From: Desulfobacterales bacterium
GTDB lineage: Bacteria; Desulfobacterota; Desulfobacteria; Desulfobacterales; 4572-123
DNA: 63,042 nt
Direction: 5' to 3'
Assembly: GCA_029939715.1 (NCBI GenBank)
Contig: JAOZSJ010000006.1
Coordinates: 1-63,042 of the forward strand
Shown here: in pieces, positions 16,471 to 62,208 of the stretch
Layout of the letters: each line of letters opens with the position of its first letter
How positions within the stretch are numbered: position 1 is the stretch's first letter
The notes under the pieces: generated by a model
Told to the model about the DNA's origin: nothing
Database searches by the model: none
Seen by the model: the letters and a program-made list of their open reading frames with translations, nothing else
Position numbers and translations under genes: made by a program

Positions 16471-17869
16471 AGTCGCTCCATTTCAGCAGGCTGAATCGAT
16501 CCGGCCGCAGAAAACAGCGTAAAAGAAGCTGTTTGTCAAGCCGGTGGCTGACAGGGTTTTCAATGATTTTTTGATACACTTTCATCAGATTGTCAGTATA
16601 GCCGGACATGCCGCAGGTGTCCAGTACAACGGCCCTGTTTTTTCGGATCAGTTCGGCTGGATTTTTTATATACCCGGGTTCGGCAAGGAAGGGATTTATG
16701 CGAATCAGTTCCCGGCGGGCCTGTTTATCCTTGATGACCCGTAAAAGAATCTGTCGCTGAAAATTTTCATCCAAAAGGCCGAAATCGATCCTGCTGCCGG
16801 CGACAGCAGCGGTGAGTGCCTGCCTGATATCGTCATCGCGTGGATGAAAATCAAACCTGCGGCAGACCATGCGAAAAACATTTTTCCAACGGATTGAAAA
16901 TGCTTCCCGGTTGATCCATTCCAGAGGGATGAAGATACCTGAATACATATGATCCAGGTTTATGCCTGCTTTTTCAAAATCACGACATATTTCCGGCAGT
17001 CTGCGGCCCCAGAGCATTTTGCCGGCGGTCCAGGGCTCCAGAAACGTAAATCCGAAACCCTCGGTGATACTGGTGGTGATCAGAAACCTTGCCCGGGAGA
17101 CCAGGTCGCTGAAATCATTTTTCTCCCCGGCTTCAAACCCGACAGCTAAACGGTGTATTTTTACAAAGCGTTTCCAGTCATTGTAACTTTCCCTGTCCAT
17201 GGGACTGTTGGGCGGCAGGGTGATTTTAAGGGATACGCCATGGGGCATGAAAAGCGACAGAAGGATGGCTTCACCGATATTCTTGCGGCGGATGGCACGA
17301 ACCGGATACAGGACATGATCGGCGGTTGCACTTTGTTTTTTTCCGGGCAGCGGCGTGATGGCGTTGAACACCCTGTGCAGGCCATGGGATTTCAGTCCGC
17401 ATTTTAACAGGATGTTGTAATCCCGTGAATTGATCACGCCGTAGTGGCAGTCCGCAGGATAAGTTTCATTATGAAAATAGGCTTGGGGGCGCCCGTCTTC
17501 GGCAAAGTCATGGATCTGCAGAAAAAGAGTTATTCCCCTGATTTGAAGTATTTTAAGAATTTTTAGAAAGTTTCTGTTTTTTGCCAGGGTGGGGTTGTGA
17601 ACATGCAGTATGTCACAGCCGCCGGGCCAGCAGTTGAAAATTGCATTAATCACGGCATCGGCTGTTTCTTCCGGATCATGCCGGATTTCTTCATTAATAT
17701 CATAGCCTATTCCGGGAATGGACCGGGTTTCAACCCTGCCGTATGATCCAGCCATTTCACCGGTGAGCAGCATCACTTCGCAGGTCGGGGAAACCGCCTT
17801 TATCTGCTGCTGCAGAACGGTGGTGACGCCGCCGGTTTTTAGATGGTAGTGGAGAAATGCAATTTTCAT
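16460..17869 (-). CDS. GT-B fold glycosyltransferase (GT4-like)
   Basis: HYHLKTGGVTTV start; LHVHN; RAIRRKNI; EX7E motif EGFGFTFLE. Confidence 0.85.
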   Translation of the reverse strand: MKIAFLHYHLKTGGVTTVLQQQIKAVSPTCEVMLLTGEMAGSYGRVETRSIPGIGYDINEEIRHDPEETADAVINAIFNCWPGGCDILHVHNPTLAKNRNFLKILKILQIRGITLFLQIHDFAEDGRPQAYFHNETYPADCHYGVINSRDYNILLKCGLKSHGLHRVFNAITPLPGKKQSATADHVLYPVRAIRRKNIGEAILLSLFMPHGVSLKITLPPNSPMDRESYNDWKRFVKIHRLAVGFEAGEKNDFSDLVSRARFLITTSITEGFGFTFLEPWTAGKMLWGRRLPEICRDFEKAGINLDHMYSGIFIPLEWINREAFSIRWKNVFRMVCRRFDFHPRDDDIRQALTAAVAGSRIDFGLLDENFQRQILLRVIKDKQARRELIRINPFLAEPGYIKNPAELIRKNRAVVLDTCGMSGYTDNLMKVYQKIIENPVSHRLDKQLLLRCFLRPDRFSLLKWSDYAR

Positions 17870-17872
17870 GAT

Positions 17873-18886
17873 CTATTCTTTTGATGCGTGGACGCGCAGC
17901 CATGCTTCAAGCCGCTCAAGACCCCGGGCAGTCGATATCTCGGGAACATAATCCAGATCCTGTTTGGCAGCGCTGATATCGAACCAGTGGGAAGTGGTCA
18001 GCTCGTTGGCCACAAATCGGGTCATCATGGGTTCGCCGTTTATTTTAAAGGTTTTGTAGAAAAATTCAAGCAGGGCGCCGGCGATCCAGGCAATTCGAAA
18101 CGGTACTTTGCGGGTGATTGGCTTTTTCCCGCCGGCAGCAAGGATGGAATTGACCATTTCCCATAAAAATATGGGTTCGTCCTGACTGATAAAATAGACC
18201 CGTCCGGAAAGATCCGGATTGCAGACCAGTTTTTCAGCGGCCAGGATATGGGCCAGGGCCGCATTATCGATGTAGATGGTATCCACTATGTTTTTACCAT
18301 TGCCGACAATACGGAGCCTGTCGGCCCGGTCCAGAATCCGGGGCACCAGGTGGTTGTCCCCCGGCCCCCATATCAGGTGCGGTCTTAAGATAATTACCTT
18401 CAAGTCTCCGGATGCAGCCGCCAGAACGGCTTTTTCGGCCAATGCCTTGGTCTTGGGGTAATGGGTGGTATGCCGGGCCGCATGGGGTACGGATTCATCA
18501 ACGCCTTTCATATCTTTGCCGTTGAAAACAACACTCGGGCTGCTGGTGTGGATCAGTCGAGACACCTTGTTTTTCAGGCAGGCGGCAATGACATTTTCAG
18601 TGCCGGTGACATTGGTATCATAATAATCGGAATATTTTCCCCAGACACCGGGAAGCGCCGCCACGTGAAAAACCAGGCCCATGCCCCGGCATGCTTTTTC
18701 CACCGCCTTTGAATTGCAGAGATCGCCTTTAATCTGATTTACCTGCAACCGGTCGAGCTCCGGATATGATTTTCTGGAAAAACTTGTCACCCGGCAGCCT
18801 TTTTTTATCAGGCGTTTTACGATGGCCTTGCCGAGAAATCCGCCTCCTCCGGTGACCAGTATATTTTCAGGTGTGGTTTGGGTCAT
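17873..18886 (-). CDS. oleD: OleD, 2-alkyl-3-oxoalkanoate reductase (3-beta-HSD-like SDR)
   Basis: TGGGGFLG, TSSPSVV, YPKTK, LRPHLIWGPGD; directly downstream of oleABC. Confidence 0.85.
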   Translation of the reverse strand: MTQTTPENILVTGGGGFLGKAIVKRLIKKGCRVTSFSRKSYPELDRLQVNQIKGDLCNSKAVEKACRGMGLVFHVAALPGVWGKYSDYYDTNVTGTENVIAACLKNKVSRLIHTSSPSVVFNGKDMKGVDESVPHAARHTTHYPKTKALAEKAVLAAASGDLKVIILRPHLIWGPGDNHLVPRILDRADRLRIVGNGKNIVDTIYIDNAALAHILAAEKLVCNPDLSGRVYFISQDEPIFLWEMVNSILAAGGKKPITRKVPFRIAWIAGALLEFFYKTFKINGEPMMTRFVANELTTSHWFDISAAKQDLDYVPEISTARGLERLEAWLRVHASKE

Positions 18887-19056: not shown

Positions 19057-20742
19057 TTAAATTTTTCCGGCGGCCCATACGGCCAGTTTTTCACGAAAAA
19101 TTTTGGCATTATGCCGGATATCCACGGGAAAGGATGGGTGAAATAAAATATCTTTTATGGGCTCTGTCATGGGGTTTTCCCCGGCCATTTTAAGCAGCGC
19201 CCTTTCCAGGGTGTCCATATCTTCGTTACCGTGGTCTTTGTTGATCTCAATACAGATCACCGGATACTGCTCGCCTTTTGGCCCAATGCCTACCAGGGCG
19301 GACCGGAAAACCGCCGGGTGATTGTTGAAAACCGATTCGCAGGGTATTGTAAACATATCGCCGTCGCGGGTTGTTACCCGGTGGCTTTTACGCCCGCAAA
19401 ACCAGATTCGCCCTTTTTTGTCCTGCCAGCCAAGGTCCCCCATGCGGTGCCGGATCTCCTCATTATCCCTGATTTTGGCCAGGGCATCATCTTTGGGACG
19501 CATAAAATATTGTCGGGTGACCAGATCCCCCTTTACCACGATTTCGCCGATTTCGCCATCTTTGACAAGGAGTTTTTCCGACCAGGTTTCAATGGGAGAG
19601 TCGCTGATTTTGATCAGTTTGGCATCGATATTATCGATGGGCCGGCCTATGCACATGCCGTAGCCTTTTTCGCTCAACTCTTTGGTTTCCGCCAGAATTT
19701 CCCGGCTGCCGATGGAGATAACGGGCACTGCTTCGGTGGCGCCGTAAGGTGTATGGATCTGGGCTTCTTTACTCATCATGGCAGAAAACTGCCCGATATT
19801 GGCCGGAGATACCGGGGCTCCGGCCGAGATTACCCGTTTCAAGGATGGCAGTTTTATGTTGTTGGCCTTTCCATAGGCCCCCACCCGGTTTAAAAGGGCC
19901 GGAGATGCAAACATGTTGGTGACTCCCTGGTTCCAGATGGCTTCGATGATTCGGGTCGGGTCGACCCGGGCCGGCTGGGTCGGATCCATGTCCGGGATGA
20001 CGGCGGTCATCCCCAGGGCCGGGTCAAACAGAGCAAACAGGGGAAATGTGGGCAGGTCTATCTCATCGGGTGTGATATCAAAATGAGATTTGATCTGTCG
20101 CACCTGGGCGTCAAAGACGCCATGGGTGTAAACAACTCCCTTGGCCGGTCCCGTACTGCCCGTGGTAAAGAGGATGGCTGCAGTTTCATCCCGGCCGGTA
20201 CGGGCAGCGACATAGGGTTTTTCCCGGTCTTCCTGCAGATCCTGCAGCCTGTATCCGCCCCAGAACCAGCGCCTTCCAACCGTTACCCAGATCTTTACGG
20301 TGTCAAAATATTTCGGGCAGAGCTTGCGCAGCACATGGGCCTTGGGGATGCCGATAAAGGCGGCAGGCCGGCCCTCCTTCATACAGCCGAGCATGCGGCG
20401 GATGCCCATGCCCGGATCAACCATCACCGGGATGGCACCGGTCTTGAAAAGGGCAAATGTGAGGGCAAAGAAATCCAGGCTCGGTTTTACCATCAAAATG
20501 GTACGCATTCCCCGCCGAATACCTATGCTTTCCAGGCCTGCGGCGATATTGTCGGATTCCCTGTCCAGCTGCAGGAAAGTGTAATGGGAATAGGTTACCC
20601 GCCCGGCGGAATCACGGCCCACCGGAAAGACCACGGCACGTTTGTAAGGCTGGGCTGCCGCAGTTTTTTTAAGACGGCGTGAAATATTGATAAAAACCCC
20701 GTTTTTACTGCCTGTGTCGGGGGATTGTGTGTCAGCATGCAT
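19057..20742 (-). CDS. oleC: OleC, beta-lactone synthetase (ANL family)
   Basis: FTTGSTGPAKG; TPYGATEAVP; HRMGD; C-terminal VDIRHNAKIFR typical of OleC; cluster context. Confidence 0.88.
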   Translation of the reverse strand: MHADTQSPDTGSKNGVFINISRRLKKTAAAQPYKRAVVFPVGRDSAGRVTYSHYTFLQLDRESDNIAAGLESIGIRRGMRTILMVKPSLDFFALTFALFKTGAIPVMVDPGMGIRRMLGCMKEGRPAAFIGIPKAHVLRKLCPKYFDTVKIWVTVGRRWFWGGYRLQDLQEDREKPYVAARTGRDETAAILFTTGSTGPAKGVVYTHGVFDAQVRQIKSHFDITPDEIDLPTFPLFALFDPALGMTAVIPDMDPTQPARVDPTRIIEAIWNQGVTNMFASPALLNRVGAYGKANNIKLPSLKRVISAGAPVSPANIGQFSAMMSKEAQIHTPYGATEAVPVISIGSREILAETKELSEKGYGMCIGRPIDNIDAKLIKISDSPIETWSEKLLVKDGEIGEIVVKGDLVTRQYFMRPKDDALAKIRDNEEIRHRMGDLGWQDKKGRIWFCGRKSHRVTTRDGDMFTIPCESVFNNHPAVFRSALVGIGPKGEQYPVICIEINKDHGNEDMDTLERALLKMAGENPMTEPIKDILFHPSFPVDIRHNAKIFREKLAVWAAGKI

Positions 20743-57246: not shown

Positions 57247-57403
57247 AAGACTTCTCACTTCTCACTATTCAATTTGGTTATAGCTTTGCCAGGTTAGGCT
57301 ATCAGCTGTCAGCTATCTGGCATCCCGTCACTGCTTTTTTGCCGTGAACCGATAACCGGCAACCGGAGACCGGCAACGTATCTTACAACCGTCACCTTTC
57401 CAT

Positions 57404-58054
57404 TCACACAATGACCACCTTCTGGATGGTGCGGACAATCTCTTCGGGATCGTCCATGATTTGGAAGAGATCAAGGTTTTCAGGAGATATACTCTGTTCG
57501 GCCAGAAGACGGCTTTTAATCCAGTCAAGCAGTCCCGTCCAGTAATCAGAGCCCACAAGAATTACCGGAAACTGTTTTATACGCCGGGTCTGTATCAGGG
57601 TCAGGACTTCAAATAGTTCATCCATCGTGCCGAAACCACCGGGCATCACCACATATGCTGAAGCATATTTGATAAACATGACTTTGCGGATAAAAAAATA
57701 CTTGAATTCCATCGTTATGTTGGCAAAGGGATTTGGTTTCTGCTCAAAAGGAAGGTGGATATTAAGCCCGACGGATGTTCCCCCTGCTTCGGCTGCGCCT
57801 TTGTTGGCAGCTTCCATCACACCGCCACCGCCACCGGTAACTACGGCAAAATTATTTTTTGCAAACAGCGCTGCTATTTTTTCTGTTTTTTTATAACAGG
57901 ATGTATTCGGGGCAATACGGGCGGACCCGAAAATACTCACGGCCGGACCCAGATCATGCAGAGACTCCACTCCGTCAACAAACTCTCCCATGATTTTAAA
58001 CAGTCGCCATGATTCGTTCAGTTTGAAGTCGTCAATTAAATATTGTTTTTCCAT
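57404..58054 (-). CDS. LOG family (TIGR00730-like) nucleotide monophosphate nucleosidase
   Basis: FGSAR, TGGGGGVMEAAN, RKVMF, PGGFGTMDE. Confidence 0.9.
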   Translation of the reverse strand: MEKQYLIDDFKLNESWRLFKIMGEFVDGVESLHDLGPAVSIFGSARIAPNTSCYKKTEKIAALFAKNNFAVVTGGGGGVMEAANKGAAEAGGTSVGLNIHLPFEQKPNPFANITMEFKYFFIRKVMFIKYASAYVVMPGGFGTMDELFEVLTLIQTRRIKQFPVILVGSDYWTGLLDWIKSRLLAEQSISPENLDLFQIMDDPEEIVRTIQKVVIV

Positions 58055-58287
58055 ATATCTCCTGTGTATAGTGTTCAGGCTCGAAGTTCAGATGCCGGGG
58101 CTATAGGTTTGGATAAGTAGCAGTGTTTGAACGAAAAGTATTTTTTTCAATACTGGCAATAGGTTCAACTTATTTTGCTATGTGAAGATTTGTGAACAAG
58201 CCATCAGCTCTTAGTTAAATAGTGTTATCTGTTTGATTTTTTTAAGCTAAAGGCTAACCGCTAAAAGTTAATATCGGCGATTTTTTT

Positions 58288-58306
58288 GACCGGCTTCCAG
58301 CCGACC
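58288..58306 (-). promoter_or_regulatory. Candidate bacterial SECIS for U73
   Basis: GGUCGGCU-GGA-AGCCGGUC hairpin beginning after an 11-nt spacer 3' of the UGA. Confidence 0.75.
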
Positions 58307-58308
58307 TG

Positions 58309-58536
58309 TTATACTCCTCAGCTTTTTCCCTTGAACCCGATCATAACATCGTCCTGATCTACGATTACAGGCACCTTACGGGTTCCTCCTGAATATTTCA
58401 GCATATTGTCCAATTTGGCGGTATCGGCCAGGACATCCATGTAGGTCACGCTTTTACCCTCTTGCGCATAGGCTTCACGAGCCGCATTGGTATAAGGTCA
58501 TGTATTTTTTCCGAAAATTAAGATTTTTTTCGACAT
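58309..58536 (-). CDS. 75-aa glutaredoxin-like selenoprotein with two Sec residues (UXX-star-like)
   Basis: Hand translation: MSKKILIFGKNT-UGA-PYTNAAREAYAQEGKSVTYMDVLADTAKLDNMLKYSGGTRKVPVIVDQDDVMIGFKGKS-UGA-GV-TAA; RBS GGAGGGA; Grx cis-Pro motif VPVI; hairpins after both UGAs. Confidence 0.88.
58471..58483 (-). promoter_or_regulatory. Candidate bacterial SECIS for U13
   Basis: GGCU-CGUGA-AGCC upper stem at +15..+27 after the UGA, extendable by a lower stem. Confidence 0.6.
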
Positions 58537-58757
58537 GGCATCCCTCCTGTGTTTTTGCACAGCGCATGATCGAATCATACGCAGGTTGATGGGATAGTGC
58601 TGTCAGTGCTATTACTCTGACCGTGCACTCATCACGAATGAATTATATTTAAAATAGAAATAGAACCATATCAGCAGTTTGTTGTTTGGTCAATGATTTC
58701 AGATTGACACCATGAAAGTTGATTGATAAAAGCCAGATAAATTTAATTATACAAAGA

Positions 58758-59039
58758 ATGGGAAGCCGGGTGGAATTGATTTCAAGAAATGTAACAATTG
58801 TAAATGAGTTGGGTCTGCATGCCCGATCCGCCGGAAAAATTGCTGCAATTGTAAAAAACGCCCGATCAAACGTGTGGATCAAAAGGGAAGGGGAAAGGGC
58901 GGATGCCGCCAGTGTGATTGATATTCTCACCCTTGCCTGCGCCAAAGGTTCCAAAATTTCAATAGAAATTGAGGAGCCGGCGGATCTCAATATTTTAAAT
59001 GAGATTGAAGAGCTTGTTAAACAGGGGTTTAGAGAATAG
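58758..59039 (+). CDS. ptsH: HPr phosphocarrier
   Basis: NELGLHARS (His15); ADAASVIDILTL (Ser46 region). Start ATG 58758 or GTG 58770. Confidence 0.92.
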   Translation: MGSRVELISRNVTIVNELGLHARSAGKIAAIVKNARSNVWIKREGERADAASVIDILTLACAKGSKISIEIEEPADLNILNEIEELVKQGFRE

Positions 59040-59054
59040 ATTCAGGTTACTGAT

Positions 59055-60815
59055 ATGGCTAAAAAACAAATAACGCTGGAAGGAATAAGCGGTGCTCCTG
59101 GAATCTGTATAGGCAAGGCATACCTTGTAGATACGGAAGGGGTTGATATTGTTGAAAAATATTTTATCCACGCTGATGCACTGGCGGATGAAATTATCCG
59201 TTTCAAGGCGGCGGTCAAAGATACCCGGGATGAATTGCTGGAAATAATCAGTAATACCCCTGAAGAATTGCATCAGAGTTCTTATATCCTGGAAACCCAT
59301 GTGGCCCTTCTGGAGGATAAGATGCTCTATGGCCGGGCCATAGAGACTATCGAAAAACAGTATGTCAATGCCGAATGGGCACTTAAAACGGTGATTTCGG
59401 ATATAAAGGCCATGTTCCAGAATATTACCGATGATTATTTAAAAGAGCGGAAGGGCGACATCATGCACGTCGCCAACCGCATTATGGCAAAACTCGCGGG
59501 TGTGGAATCGGTGAATATCGCCGAGATTGACAAGCGGGTTATCCTGGTAGCCTCCGATCTGAGCCCGGCCCAGACCAGCCAGATACAACTGGAGCGGATC
59601 AAGGGTTTTATAACCGACCGCGGCGGAAAGACATCGCATACCACCATAATTGCCAGAAGTCTCGGGATCCCCGCGGTACTGGGCCTTGATAATGCAACCG
59701 ATATTATTCAGACCGATGATATTATTATTGTCGATGGCACCACAGGAAAAGTCATAATCAACCCGGACGAAGAGACGCTTGTATACTACGAGGAGCGCCG
59801 GGGCCGGTTTGAAGCACACAAAGCCGTATTGGTCCGGGGCAGCCGCCTGCCGGCTGAAACCAAAGATGGATTGCTGCTGCAGGTGATGGGTAATATCGAA
59901 CTGCCCGAAGAGGTAGTATTGGTTCTTGACAACGGCGGCGAAGGCATCGGCCTTTACCGGACAGAGTTTGAATATATGAACAGCCCCAGTTTTCCCGGCG
60001 AGGATGAACTGTTTGAGAGATACAGGGATGTGGTCGAGGTGATGGGCCGGAGGCCGGTAACCATACGTACCCTTGATATCAACGGCGATAAATCTGTTGC
60101 CTACGCCGCCGACCGGTATGAACTCAATCCCGCCCTCGGACTGCGGGCCATACGCTATTGTCTCAAAAAGCCGGATATTTTTGAAACTCAGTTGCGTGCT
60201 ATTTTAAGGGCTTCCGCCTTTGGCAATGTTAAAATTCTGATTCCGATGATATCGTGTTGCGGTGAAATCGACAAGACCCGCTTGATTCTGGATAAGGCGG
60301 CCGAATCGCTGGAGAAAGAAGGCATTCCTTTTGACAGGGATATAAAAGTCGGTATCATGATCGAGGTTCCTTCGGCCGTGATTATGGCGGATATAATGGC
60401 TGAAAAAGTTGATTTTTTCAGCATCGGAACCAATGATCTGATTCAGTATTCACTTGCCATTGACCGCGGTAACAGAGAAGTCTCACATCTGTTCCAGCCG
60501 CTTCACCCGGCAATTTTGAGAATGATTCATCGCGTTACCGATGTCGCCGTAGAAAAGGGTATCGATCTTGTCATGTGTGGAGAGATGGCTGCCGATCCTC
60601 TGTACATACCCGTTATTCTGGGCCTAGGGATCAAGAACTTGAGCATGAATCCGCAGTCGATACCGCTTGTTAAAAGTGTTGTCAGGGCCTTGAAAAAATC
60701 GGATATGGAACCTTTTATGAAAGAGGTCATGAAGCAGACCAATCCTGTGGATATTGAAACTGTGATTCAACATAATTTCGGCACTGTTTTTTCTGAAAAA
60801 ATTTATTCCCGGTAA
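59055..60815 (+). CDS. ptsI: PTS enzyme I
   Basis: GGKTSHTTI phospho-His; GIGLYRTE; NPALGLR; GIMIEVP; FSIGTNDL; MCGEMA. Confidence 0.95.
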   Translation: MAKKQITLEGISGAPGICIGKAYLVDTEGVDIVEKYFIHADALADEIIRFKAAVKDTRDELLEIISNTPEELHQSSYILETHVALLEDKMLYGRAIETIEKQYVNAEWALKTVISDIKAMFQNITDDYLKERKGDIMHVANRIMAKLAGVESVNIAEIDKRVILVASDLSPAQTSQIQLERIKGFITDRGGKTSHTTIIARSLGIPAVLGLDNATDIIQTDDIIIVDGTTGKVIINPDEETLVYYEERRGRFEAHKAVLVRGSRLPAETKDGLLLQVMGNIELPEEVVLVLDNGGEGIGLYRTEFEYMNSPSFPGEDELFERYRDVVEVMGRRPVTIRTLDINGDKSVAYAADRYELNPALGLRAIRYCLKKPDIFETQLRAILRASAFGNVKILIPMISCCGEIDKTRLILDKAAESLEKEGIPFDRDIKVGIMIEVPSAVIMADIMAEKVDFFSIGTNDLIQYSLAIDRGNREVSHLFQPLHPAILRMIHRVTDVAVEKGIDLVMCGEMAADPLYIPVILGLGIKNLSMNPQSIPLVKSVVRALKKSDMEPFMKEVMKQTNPVDIETVIQHNFGTVFSEKIYSR

Positions 60816-60894: not shown

Positions 60895-61356
60895 TTGGCG
60901 GAAAAAAAATATGGAAAAATAATAACGGAAAACCGTAAGGCGCGTTTCAATTATTTTATTGAAGATGAATATGAAGCAGGCATGGTACTGAAGGGAACCG
61001 AGGTTAAGTCCATGCGCCTGGGCCGCGCTAATCTCAAGGATTCATACGCCAGGATTCACAAGGGCGAGGTGTTTGTGTACCAGATGCATATTGCCGCATA
61101 TCCGTTTGCCTATTATGATAACCATGAACCGTTGCGGATTCGAAAATTGCTGCTGCACAACCACGAAATTAAAAAACTATACGGCAAGGTCAATGAAAAG
61201 GGATATTCTCTGGTACCGTTGCGGCTGTACTTTAAACACGGCAAGGTCAAGATGAGCCTGGGCCTGGCCAGGGGCAAGCGCAAGGTGGATAAGCGGGAGA
61301 CCATTCGGCAGCGGGATCAGAAGAGGGACCTGGACCGGGCTAAAAAAGAATATTAG
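60895..61356 (+). CDS. smpB: SsrA-binding protein
   Basis: NRKARFNY, GMVLKGTEVKS, RKLLLH, DKRE. Confidence 0.97.
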   Translation: MAEKKYGKIITENRKARFNYFIEDEYEAGMVLKGTEVKSMRLGRANLKDSYARIHKGEVFVYQMHIAAYPFAYYDNHEPLRIRKLLLHNHEIKKLYGKVNEKGYSLVPLRLYFKHGKVKMSLGLARGKRKVDKRETIRQRDQKRDLDRAKKEY

Positions 61357-61441: not shown

Positions 61442-61793
61442 GGGGGCGAAACGGCTTCGACGGGGATATAGAAGCTATGGTTGCATACCGAGTTCCTGCC
61501 AGCTCGTAAAACCGGCGGGAAATAAACATAATCGCAGACGATTATAACTACGCTCTGGCCGCTTAAGGCCAGCGTTCTGCCGGATTATTCCTGCGCATCC
61601 GGTAAGAGCGTCGACTAGCGGGATAAACTTGTTTTGGATGTTTGCTCCGATTCAGGTGAAATTTTGCAGACTAGTCTTTAAAGTATCCTGCCTGAAGGAG
61701 ACTTAAAAGGCGAACTATAGAGTTCGGGCTAAGTATGTAGATACCATTGTGGAATATTTTCGGACGCGGGTTCGACTCCCGCCGCCTCCACCA
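61442..61793 (+). ncRNA. ssrA: tmRNA; tag peptide (A)ADDYNYALAA
   Basis: 5' GGGGGCG pairs with 3' CGCCUCC-A-CCA including the G3:U alanine identity pair; T-loop GGTTCGACTCC; tag ORF at 61534-61566; follows smpB. Confidence 0.97.
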
Positions 61794-61909
61794 CGCTTCG
61801 CCTTTCAGGCTACGCGTGGCAGGCCTGCTCAATGGTCTGATTGATCTTTTTAAATAATCAGTTTGTATCGTTAAGAAGCGTGCCTTGCGTAGTTCATTGG
61901 AACGAAGCG
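61794..61909. repeat. Imperfect inverted repeat pair directly 3' of tmRNA
   Basis: Left arm CGCTTCG-cctttcagg-CTACGC-gt-GGCA (61794-61821) matches the reverse complement of 61881-61909 (CGCTTCG-ttccaatgaa-CTACGC-aa-GGCA). Confidence 0.7.
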
Positions 61910-61926
61910 GGGCAGATATTATCCTA

Positions 61927-62208
61927 ATGTATTACGTCTATATGCTCCGCAGTATTTCATATCCGGAGCAAACCTATATCGGGTTTTCCAAAGATCTGAA
62001 GGCACGAATAAAGGCTCACAATTCAGGCCAATCCCCGCACACGTCCAAATACAAGCCATGGTCATTGATCACTTATTTGGCATTCAAAGAACGACAGAAA
62101 GCCCTTAATTTTGAAAAATATCTAAAATCCCATTCCGGAAAAGCATTTGCCTGCAAACGCCTGTGGTCATCCCCACCGATTACCAGCCCCGAATCCTCTC
62201 TAAATTGA
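61927..62208 (+). CDS. Small GIY-YIG endonuclease
   Basis: YYVYML...YIG...LKARIKAHN...T.KYKPW...FEKYLKS.SG. Confidence 0.9.
   Translation: MYYVYMLRSISYPEQTYIGFSKDLKARIKAHNSGQSPHTSKYKPWSLITYLAFKERQKALNFEKYLKSHSGKAFACKRLWSSPPITSPESSLN

Follow-up and report, generated by a model that had tools for sequence, protein, structure and literature searches.

The review PMC13188914 lists a glutaredoxin-like selenoprotein family as 'Distant Grx-like protein 1', with a UxxT motif and two selenocysteine (Sec) residues. There, the family is credited to Zhang & Gladyshev 2008, and further UXX-star families are credited to Haft & Tolstoy 2025. Curated NCBIfam models exist for family 1 of the UXX-star selenoproteins (NF041114), for families 2 and 3, and for a parent subfamily (NF041212); another model, NF045501, describes fusion proteins of other organisms, with a UXX-star domain joined to a redox domain of the C_GCAxxG_C_C type. 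A selenocysteine insertion element (SECIS) located after the stop codon has been engineered, for production of recombinant rat thioredoxin reductase 1 (TrxR1; Arner et al. 1999, as cited in PMC3834832).

We analyzed a gene of this kind in a contig of 63,042 nucleotides (JAOZSJ010000006.1, assembly GCA_029939715.1), hereafter the window. The kind of gene is already curated and published, and the locus adds one more member, from a Desulfobacterales-type metagenome-assembled genome (MAG).

Gene structure and family membership

An earlier note, made from the letters of the window alone, had described a glutaredoxin-like gene missing from the list of open reading frames (ORFs), with a ribosome-binding site, an ATG, UGA at codons 13 and 73, and the cis-Pro motif VPVI between both UGAs. 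We found each of these elements where the note had placed it, exactly to the base (Table 1). With translation table 11, the ORF listing contains a 43-aa internal GTG fragment alone at this locus; thus, the gene is invisible to ordinary ORF calling. Reading both UGA codons as Sec (U) yields the product MSKKILIFGKNTUPYTNAAREAYAQEGKSVTYMDVLADTAKLDNMLKYSGGTRKVPVIVDQDDVMIGFKGKSUGV, in which residues 54-58 form the cis-Pro motif K-V-P-V-I; the 3' end of the gene reads TGA-GGA-GTA-TAA (58320..58309). GGAGG-type sites are found at the same position in most of 23 homologues. A promoter candidate lies upstream, and the sigma-70-like consensus matches show no enrichment over shuffled sequences.

Table 1. 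Features of the selenoprotein locus (positions in the window)
Feature	Position	Strand	Remarks
Sigma-70-like promoter candidate, TTGACC-17-TATGGT	58665..58693	(-)	Upstream of the selenoprotein gene; consensus match only
Shine-Dalgarno sequence, GGAGGGA	58541..58547	(-)	4 nt before the ATG
UXX-star family 1 selenoprotein gene	58309..58536	(-)	ATG at 58536..58534; 75 codons and TAA
UGA codon 13, read as Sec	58498..58500	(-)	T-U-P-Y-T; site of the first Cys in CPYC
In-frame SECIS hairpin 1, GGCU[CGUGA]AGCC	58471..58483	(-)	Loop starts 21 nt from the U of UGA-13
UGA codon 73, read as Sec	58318..58320	(-)	S-U-G-V-stop; three residues before the end
True terminator, TAA	58309..58311	(-)	
3'-UTR SECIS hairpin 2, GGUCGGCU[GGA]AGCCGGUC	58288..58306	(-)	Loop starts 22 nt from the U of UGA-73
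TIGR00730/LOG-family gene	57404..58054	(-)	153 bits; downstream, same strand; syntenic, not a demonstrated partner

For profile scoring, the U residues of the protein were read as C. The protein matches NF041114, 'UXX-star selenoprotein family 1', with 105.6 bits (cutoff 72, E = 1.1e-30), and the parent subfamily NF041212 with 82.8 bits (cutoff 66); it scores below the cutoffs of UXX-star family 2 (52.7 vs 100), of family 3 (47.4 vs 97) and of the YruB model. The Pfam Glutaredoxin domain, PF00462, is matched with 37.3 bits. The protein is neither an NrdH-redoxin (TIGR02194, 24.3 bits vs a cutoff of 85.75; no second Cys or Sec at xxT) nor a classical Grx3 (TIGR02181, 33.3 bits vs a cutoff of 90; UPYT motif and no a3 helix). 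Glutaredoxins of the latter, glutathione-dependent dithiol type combine a C-P-Y-C active site with a C-terminal helix and a GG..DD motif for binding glutathione. The two features by which the family is recognized are present, namely, the UxxT motif of the two-Sec family in PMC13188914, as T-U-P-Y-T at codons 12-16, and U-x-x-stop, with the Sec TGA located exactly three residues ahead of the true stop. Taken whole, the best explanation is that the product of the gene is a true selenoprotein of 75 residues and belongs to the curated UXX-star family 1 (probability of about 0.85); that it is a double selenoprotein is very likely. The earlier note had named UXX-star families as deltaproteobacterial. 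The family assignment stands, on the NF041114 score and the glutaredoxin fold, whereas the confinement to Deltaproteobacteria does not, given carriers in Acidobacteriota, Brocadiales, Nitrospirota and Myxococcota.

Conservation and the Sec/Cys pattern

A family member above the cutoff, with a frame of 70-75 codons, is present in 23 of 41 related genomes, and all 23 have both U-P-[Y/F/H]-T at codon 13 and the terminal U-x-x-stop. The protein is conserved on both flanks of each TGA (mean column identity of 68% in alignment A3), and P56 is invariant in the family alignment. The terminators of the 23 genes vary (TAA in 12, TGA in 8, TAG in 3). Metagenomes were scanned with a DNA pattern that fixed just the N-terminal I-[FY]-G-K-x-x-TGA-P-x-T, and 74 of the 74 family members recovered in this way end in U-x-x-stop. 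A frame shared with both TGAs by the members in 23 of 41 genomes and by 74 of 74 metagenomic copies is far beyond chance.

A separate genome scan used a back-translated pattern that happened to require Cys at codon 13. It identified 80 loci, 72 of them ending in U-x-x-stop and one in C-x-x-stop, in Acidobacteriota (Vicinamibacterales), Brocadiales, Nitrospirota, Anaeromyxobacter, Desulfobacterales and others; overall, a Cys codon (TGY) is aligned with codon 13 in 72 or more homologues. Three Cys-13 loci (L055, L056 and L076) end in U-R-I-L or U-R-V-V, with Sec four residues from the end. An exhaustive profile search also yielded homologues with Cys at both Sec positions (P0023, P0051, P0059, P0066, P0106 and others). 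These all-Cys homologues were considered as a path to a characterized family, which was rejected because they match the Uxx_star models only.

The counts of residue pairs are 97 for (U13,U73), 72 for (C13,U73), at least 11 for (C13,C73) and 0 for (U13,C73). Sec-13 is never found without Sec-73 (97:0 among the genes counted). Sec usage is ordered, with the C-terminal Sec first and the active-site Sec second, and the pattern fits a coupled pair in which the C-terminal residue is dominant. The earlier note had made its case depend on conservation past codon 13, on Cys or Sec at both positions in homologues, and on Sec machinery in the genome. Conservation extends past codon 13; the homologues are U/U in 23 of 23 genomes and 74 of 74 metagenomic copies, Cys-13/Sec-73 in 72, or all-Cys; and nothing that the note had set down in advance as speaking against it was found.

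Public collections hold the family 1 protein only as TGA=Trp miscalls or truncated fragments (P0002, P0152-P0166). The double-Sec proteins carry Trp at both TGA positions, because gene callers pick code 4 on short contigs; since TGA is a normal stop in the genome that contains the window, these entries are gene-caller artefacts. The Cys-13 forms are cut off at the C-terminal TGA and named 'glutaredoxin 3'.

SECIS hairpins

Hairpin 1 is located within the coding sequence, where it is built from the codons for A-A-R-E-A. It is small, with 4-6 bp, and 31% of TGA-13 genes do not have the full set of core pairs; all four core pairs are present in 66 of 95 TGA-13 genes (69%), compared to 5 of 72 Cys-13 genes (7%). 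Covariation at third (synonymous) positions, U-A to C-G, was observed in five sequences. The Arg codon in the loop is CGU or CGG in the Sec forms and mostly CGC in the Cys forms, and the peptide is AAREAY in the former vs AARDDY in the latter. In this comparison, which is the decisive control and lies within the family itself, the in-frame SECIS accompanies TGA at codon 13 and is lost in the Cys-13 genes; it constrains the peptide to AAREA.

Hairpin 2 lies wholly beyond the stop codon and is not followed by a U-tract. All 23 relatives have a hairpin of 5-14 bp, with the loop beginning at 20-24 nt from the U of the C-terminal UGA, compared to 2.6% of 1856 ordinary long-ORF stops in the window genome. 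In the subset with fixed geometry, there are compensatory changes in all six stem pairs, and a single G in the loop never varies. From this subset we built a covariance model (R1); it detects the element where expected in 83 of 98 family loci, and off site twice in 486 kb. Pairing reaches 97% in the R1 alignment, and there are 151 double-sided changes vs 33.8 in shuffles, figures that are biased towards structure, as the alignment is model-fitted. An anchored analysis and the covariance model were used because MAFFT/RNAalifold mis-registered the hairpins in the 3' UTRs. Folding of single sequences was no better than shuffles for either 61-nt SECIS region, and is uninformative for hairpins so small; therefore, the RNA evidence for both elements is entirely comparative. 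No known RNA family was detected in positions 57300-59100 at E <= 1.

An intrinsic terminator was considered as an alternative identity of hairpin 2, and was rejected given the missing U-tract, the missing terminator call and the fixed distance to the UGA. The terminator is itself a TGA, only 9 nt past the Sec codon, in 8 of the 23 relatives and 32 of 73 Cys-13 genes; two UGA codons 9 nt apart, one Sec and one stop, may be told apart because the spacing of the hairpin is fixed. The geometry of the UXX-star hairpins is matched by the SECIS of the selD gene of the window genome, UCCAGG[GGA]CCUGGA, with the loop at +23.

Selenocysteine machinery

The genome encodes selA (603 bits), selB (382 bits) and selD (374 bits), all above the cutoffs, and selD is itself a selenoprotein gene with an in-frame TGA in G-S-G-U-A-S-K (C162:33738-34664 (-), locus L010). 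Thus, for three of the four genes that the earlier note wished to see confirmed, the answer is positive; the fourth, selC (tRNA-Sec), was found neither by ARAGORN nor with Rfam RF01852. This absence is most likely an assembly gap, because the 249 contigs of the assembly hold just 38 tRNAs; several standard tRNA isoacceptors are missing as well. The contig that carries selB (C73, selB at 16622-18517) ends at position 19285, right after tRNA-His and tRNA-Arg and inside a tRNA cluster, and this break is a plausible site for the missing selC. TGA is a normal stop codon in this genome, ending 677 of 1878 long ORFs (36%).

A tRNA-Pyl(CUA) gene at C56:34477-34550(-) adjoins a gene for the PylS C-terminal domain (334 bits, cutoff 178; together C56:33585-34550). 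This Sec-using genome appears to encode pyrrolysine as well.

Predicted structure and proposed mechanism

AlphaFold2, run on the 23-sequence alignment, predicts a b1-a1-b2-a2-b3-b4 fold with pLDDT of 91, including the tail; the a3 helix is missing, and b4 is followed by a 9-residue tail. The top Foldseek matches are A. fulgidus Grx-1, C. oremlandii cGrx1 and NrdH (TM 0.75-0.77). It should be noted that the models were built with Cys in place of Sec, and that the tail contacts were read from DSSP strings, not coordinates. In the full model, DSSP marks two-residue ladders at K54-V55 and at U73-G74, together with bridges at 68 and 71, and residues 10-13, the sole other candidates for pairing with 54-55, are unmarked. 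A model of residues 1-68, with 69-75 deleted, retains all helices and strands (pLDDT 88.9) and loses the marks at 54-55 and 68. The loss of the 54-55 ladder on tail deletion indicates that the VP motif is the pairing site of the tail in the model; we infer that U73-G74 probably docks on this motif, next to U13. In class I glutaredoxins, the backbone of the VP-motif Val forms a hydrogen bond with the Cys of bound glutathione (GSH) (PMC11724882). A tail docked on the VP motif would thus place Sec-73 at the glutathione sulfur site, beside Sec-13. In the window genome, gshA and gshB were not found (the search for gshA used the proteobacterial-type model only), and thioredoxin reductase is present (382 bits).

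The analysis establishes the gene with its family and fold, the two SECIS elements, the Sec/Cys pairing and, except for selC, the Sec machinery. In the best explanation, SelB with Sec-tRNA(Sec) decodes UGA-13 via the small hairpin inside the coding sequence, and UGA-73 via the stronger hairpin wholly in the 3' UTR. The docked tail, the diselenide and the choice of reductant and substrate belong to a scheme that we infer. In this scheme, helix a1 would carry Sec-13 at its N-terminus, with U-P-Y-T as a mono-selenol site. The C-terminal residues would fold back, with Sec-73-Gly-74 pairing with the Lys-54-Val-55 backbone before cis-Pro-56, in the groove that glutaredoxins use for the glutathione cysteine. 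A reversible diselenide could thereby form between both selenols of the molecule; in the Cys-13 relatives, the bond would be a selenenylsulfide. The protein would thus act as a redox carrier independent of glutathione, and would probably be recharged by thioredoxin reductase. By analogy with the GCUG tail of mammalian TrxR, its C-terminal Sec would be the main site of reaction.

The most likely candidate function is that of a diselenide-forming redox protein. That it is specifically a glutathione-independent redoxin, cycling via a diselenide between the active site and the tail, has about an even chance in our estimation. The earlier note had proposed a diselenide redox switch, an idea that gains support at the level of models, from DSSP of the full and the tail-deleted AlphaFold predictions. 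A bolder version, which we put forward tentatively and with the odds somewhat against it, is that the UXX-star tail is a covalently tethered 'seleno-glutathione' mimic, with its Sec-Gly docked against the VP motif in the scaffold site for glutathione, which would make the protein a self-contained, glutathione-independent glutaredoxin, with Sec-73 catalytic and Cys-13 or Sec-13 resolving. A primary Sec-73 and a resolving residue 13 would explain why Sec-13 never occurs without Sec-73, and why the Cys-13/Sec-73 combination is common. If true, such a mimic would be a glutaredoxin for anaerobes that make no glutathione.

Gene neighbourhood

Members of the 75-aa subgroup are located between divergent ptsH-ptsI genes and the LOG gene on the same strand. 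In Acidobacteriota, 23 loci have a different gene after the Cys-13 gene, in the same orientation; its product, of about 585 aa, matches Thy1 (ThyX) twice (e.g., L084:3256-5010). Among 505 neighbouring ORFs of 102 loci, and in the distribution of LOG and HUGP in relatives, no conserved partner or substrate was found.

The genome that contains the window also encodes HUGP on its own, as a selenoprotein that belongs to the 'putative redox-active' C_GCAxxG_C_C family and has its Sec in G-Y-H-U-G-P (C245:6635-7117 (-), L262:1417-2094 (-)); this protein matches positions 1-160 of the HUGP/GUXX-star model with 254 bits. By Rosetta-stone logic, HUGP could be an obligate partner of the UXX-star protein. 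This candidate was rejected because HUGP is present in only 6 of 41 relatives, two of which are without UXX-star, and its distribution does not track that of UXX-star. From the HUGP/UXX-star fusion, no more can be drawn than general support for a redox role of the module.

Farther along the window are smpB (60895..61356), a tmRNA gene (61442..61793, tag ADDYNYALAA) and a small GIY-YIG-like ORF (61885..62208). tmRNA genes are common integration sites.

Discussion

The evidence has to be weighed against other readings of both decoding and function. If the gene were not a selenoprotein gene, its TGAs would be ordinary stops, in a decayed gene or after a 12-codon peptide, or else codons for Trp or Gly. 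The tRNA-Sec missing from the assembly and the public entries with W at both positions are in line with this reading, which is nonetheless hardly credible: about 170 loci, distributed over several phyla, keep the frame across both TGAs, the aligned residue of homologues is Cys and never Trp or Gly, and position-specific, covarying hairpins follow both TGAs. Moreover, selA, selB and selD are present, with selD itself in need of Sec decoding, and a genome in which TGA ends 36% of the long ORFs does not fit TGA as Trp or Gly. Given that the gene is a double selenoprotein, its function could be metal or metalloid handling, with Sec-13 and Sec-73 chelating Hg, As, Cu, Cd or selenium in a chaperone or buffer. 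PMC13188914 suggests metal binding for the family, and two soft ligands joined by the modelled docking of the tail would suit linear or trigonal coordination. However, no metal-resistance or transport genes recur among the neighbouring ORFs of the 102 loci, the context in the window is ptsHI, LOG and an acyl-CoA ligase, and the known fusion partner of UXX-star is a putative redox domain. Thiol-disulfide oxidoreductases, moreover, have just this fold, this cis-Pro and this placement of residue 13 at a helix dipole, so that we consider metal handling rather unlikely.

A dedicated electron donor, analogous to NrdH for ribonucleotide reductase, is another conceivable role, with the LOG/TIGR00730 protein as the recipient or, in Acidobacteriota, the ThyX-domain protein. 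The arrangement of the genes is what recommends it. In 22 loci, LOG is the next gene downstream, in the same orientation, with a median gap of 88 nt and, in the window, no terminator-like site in between, and the ThyX-domain gene is downstream in its 23 loci. Yet LOG orthologues (E < 1e-98) are present in at least 10 relatives that have no selenoprotein gene, and five of the nine such genomes inspected retain ptsI-ptsH directly next to LOG; in the 70-aa subgroup, LOG is located elsewhere. The persistence of LOG, and of its adjacency to ptsH, without the selenoprotein implies that LOG is not a dependent partner, and it was rejected as a functional one. LOG and ThyX are not known to require a thiol reductant. 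Such a donor role is accordingly improbable, and a redox protein that forms a diselenide remains the preferred reading of the function.

For annotation, the consequence is that the gene is to be called with two Sec residues; such genes are systematically lost at present. The locus is also a compact natural case of a 228-nt ORF served by two SECIS elements, the second of which lies wholly in the 3' UTR. Three leads, namely, the order of Sec usage, an in-frame SECIS that depends on TGA-13 and the predicted docking of the tail, together would amount to a testable model of a diselenide-forming, glutathione-independent redoxin for a widespread family.

Compared to the known systems, the protein differs in no respect of kind from UXX-star family 1, with which it shares the length of about 70-75 aa, the glutaredoxin fold, the UxxT motif and the second Sec three residues from the end. 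With UXX-star families 2 and 3 and the NF041212 subfamily, it has in common the fold, the C-terminal U-x-x-stop and the 3'-UTR SECIS; these proteins generally have Cys at the active site, where the window protein has Sec. The C-terminal 70 residues of the HUGP/GUXX-star fusion (NF045501) are a UXX-star domain, whereas in the window genome the HUGP and UXX-star halves are unfused. The closest solved folds and sequences are those of C. oremlandii cGrx1 (PDB 7c10/7c12) and the NrdH-type redoxins, which similarly have Sec or Cys at the N-terminus of helix a1. However, these have a U/CxxC dithiol and a C-terminal helix, in contrast to the UxxT motif, the missing a3 helix and the Sec-bearing tail of the window protein. 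Mammalian TrxR, with its Gly-Cys-Sec-Gly end, resembles the window protein in having its reactive Sec within a few residues of the C-terminus, on a flexible tail, although its flavoenzyme fold is unrelated and the redox partner of its Sec is the adjacent Cys. When this enzyme is produced as a recombinant protein in bacteria, the SECIS must be located past the stop codon, as it is in the window gene; the bacterial 3'-UTR SECIS that was engineered for TrxR is natural here.
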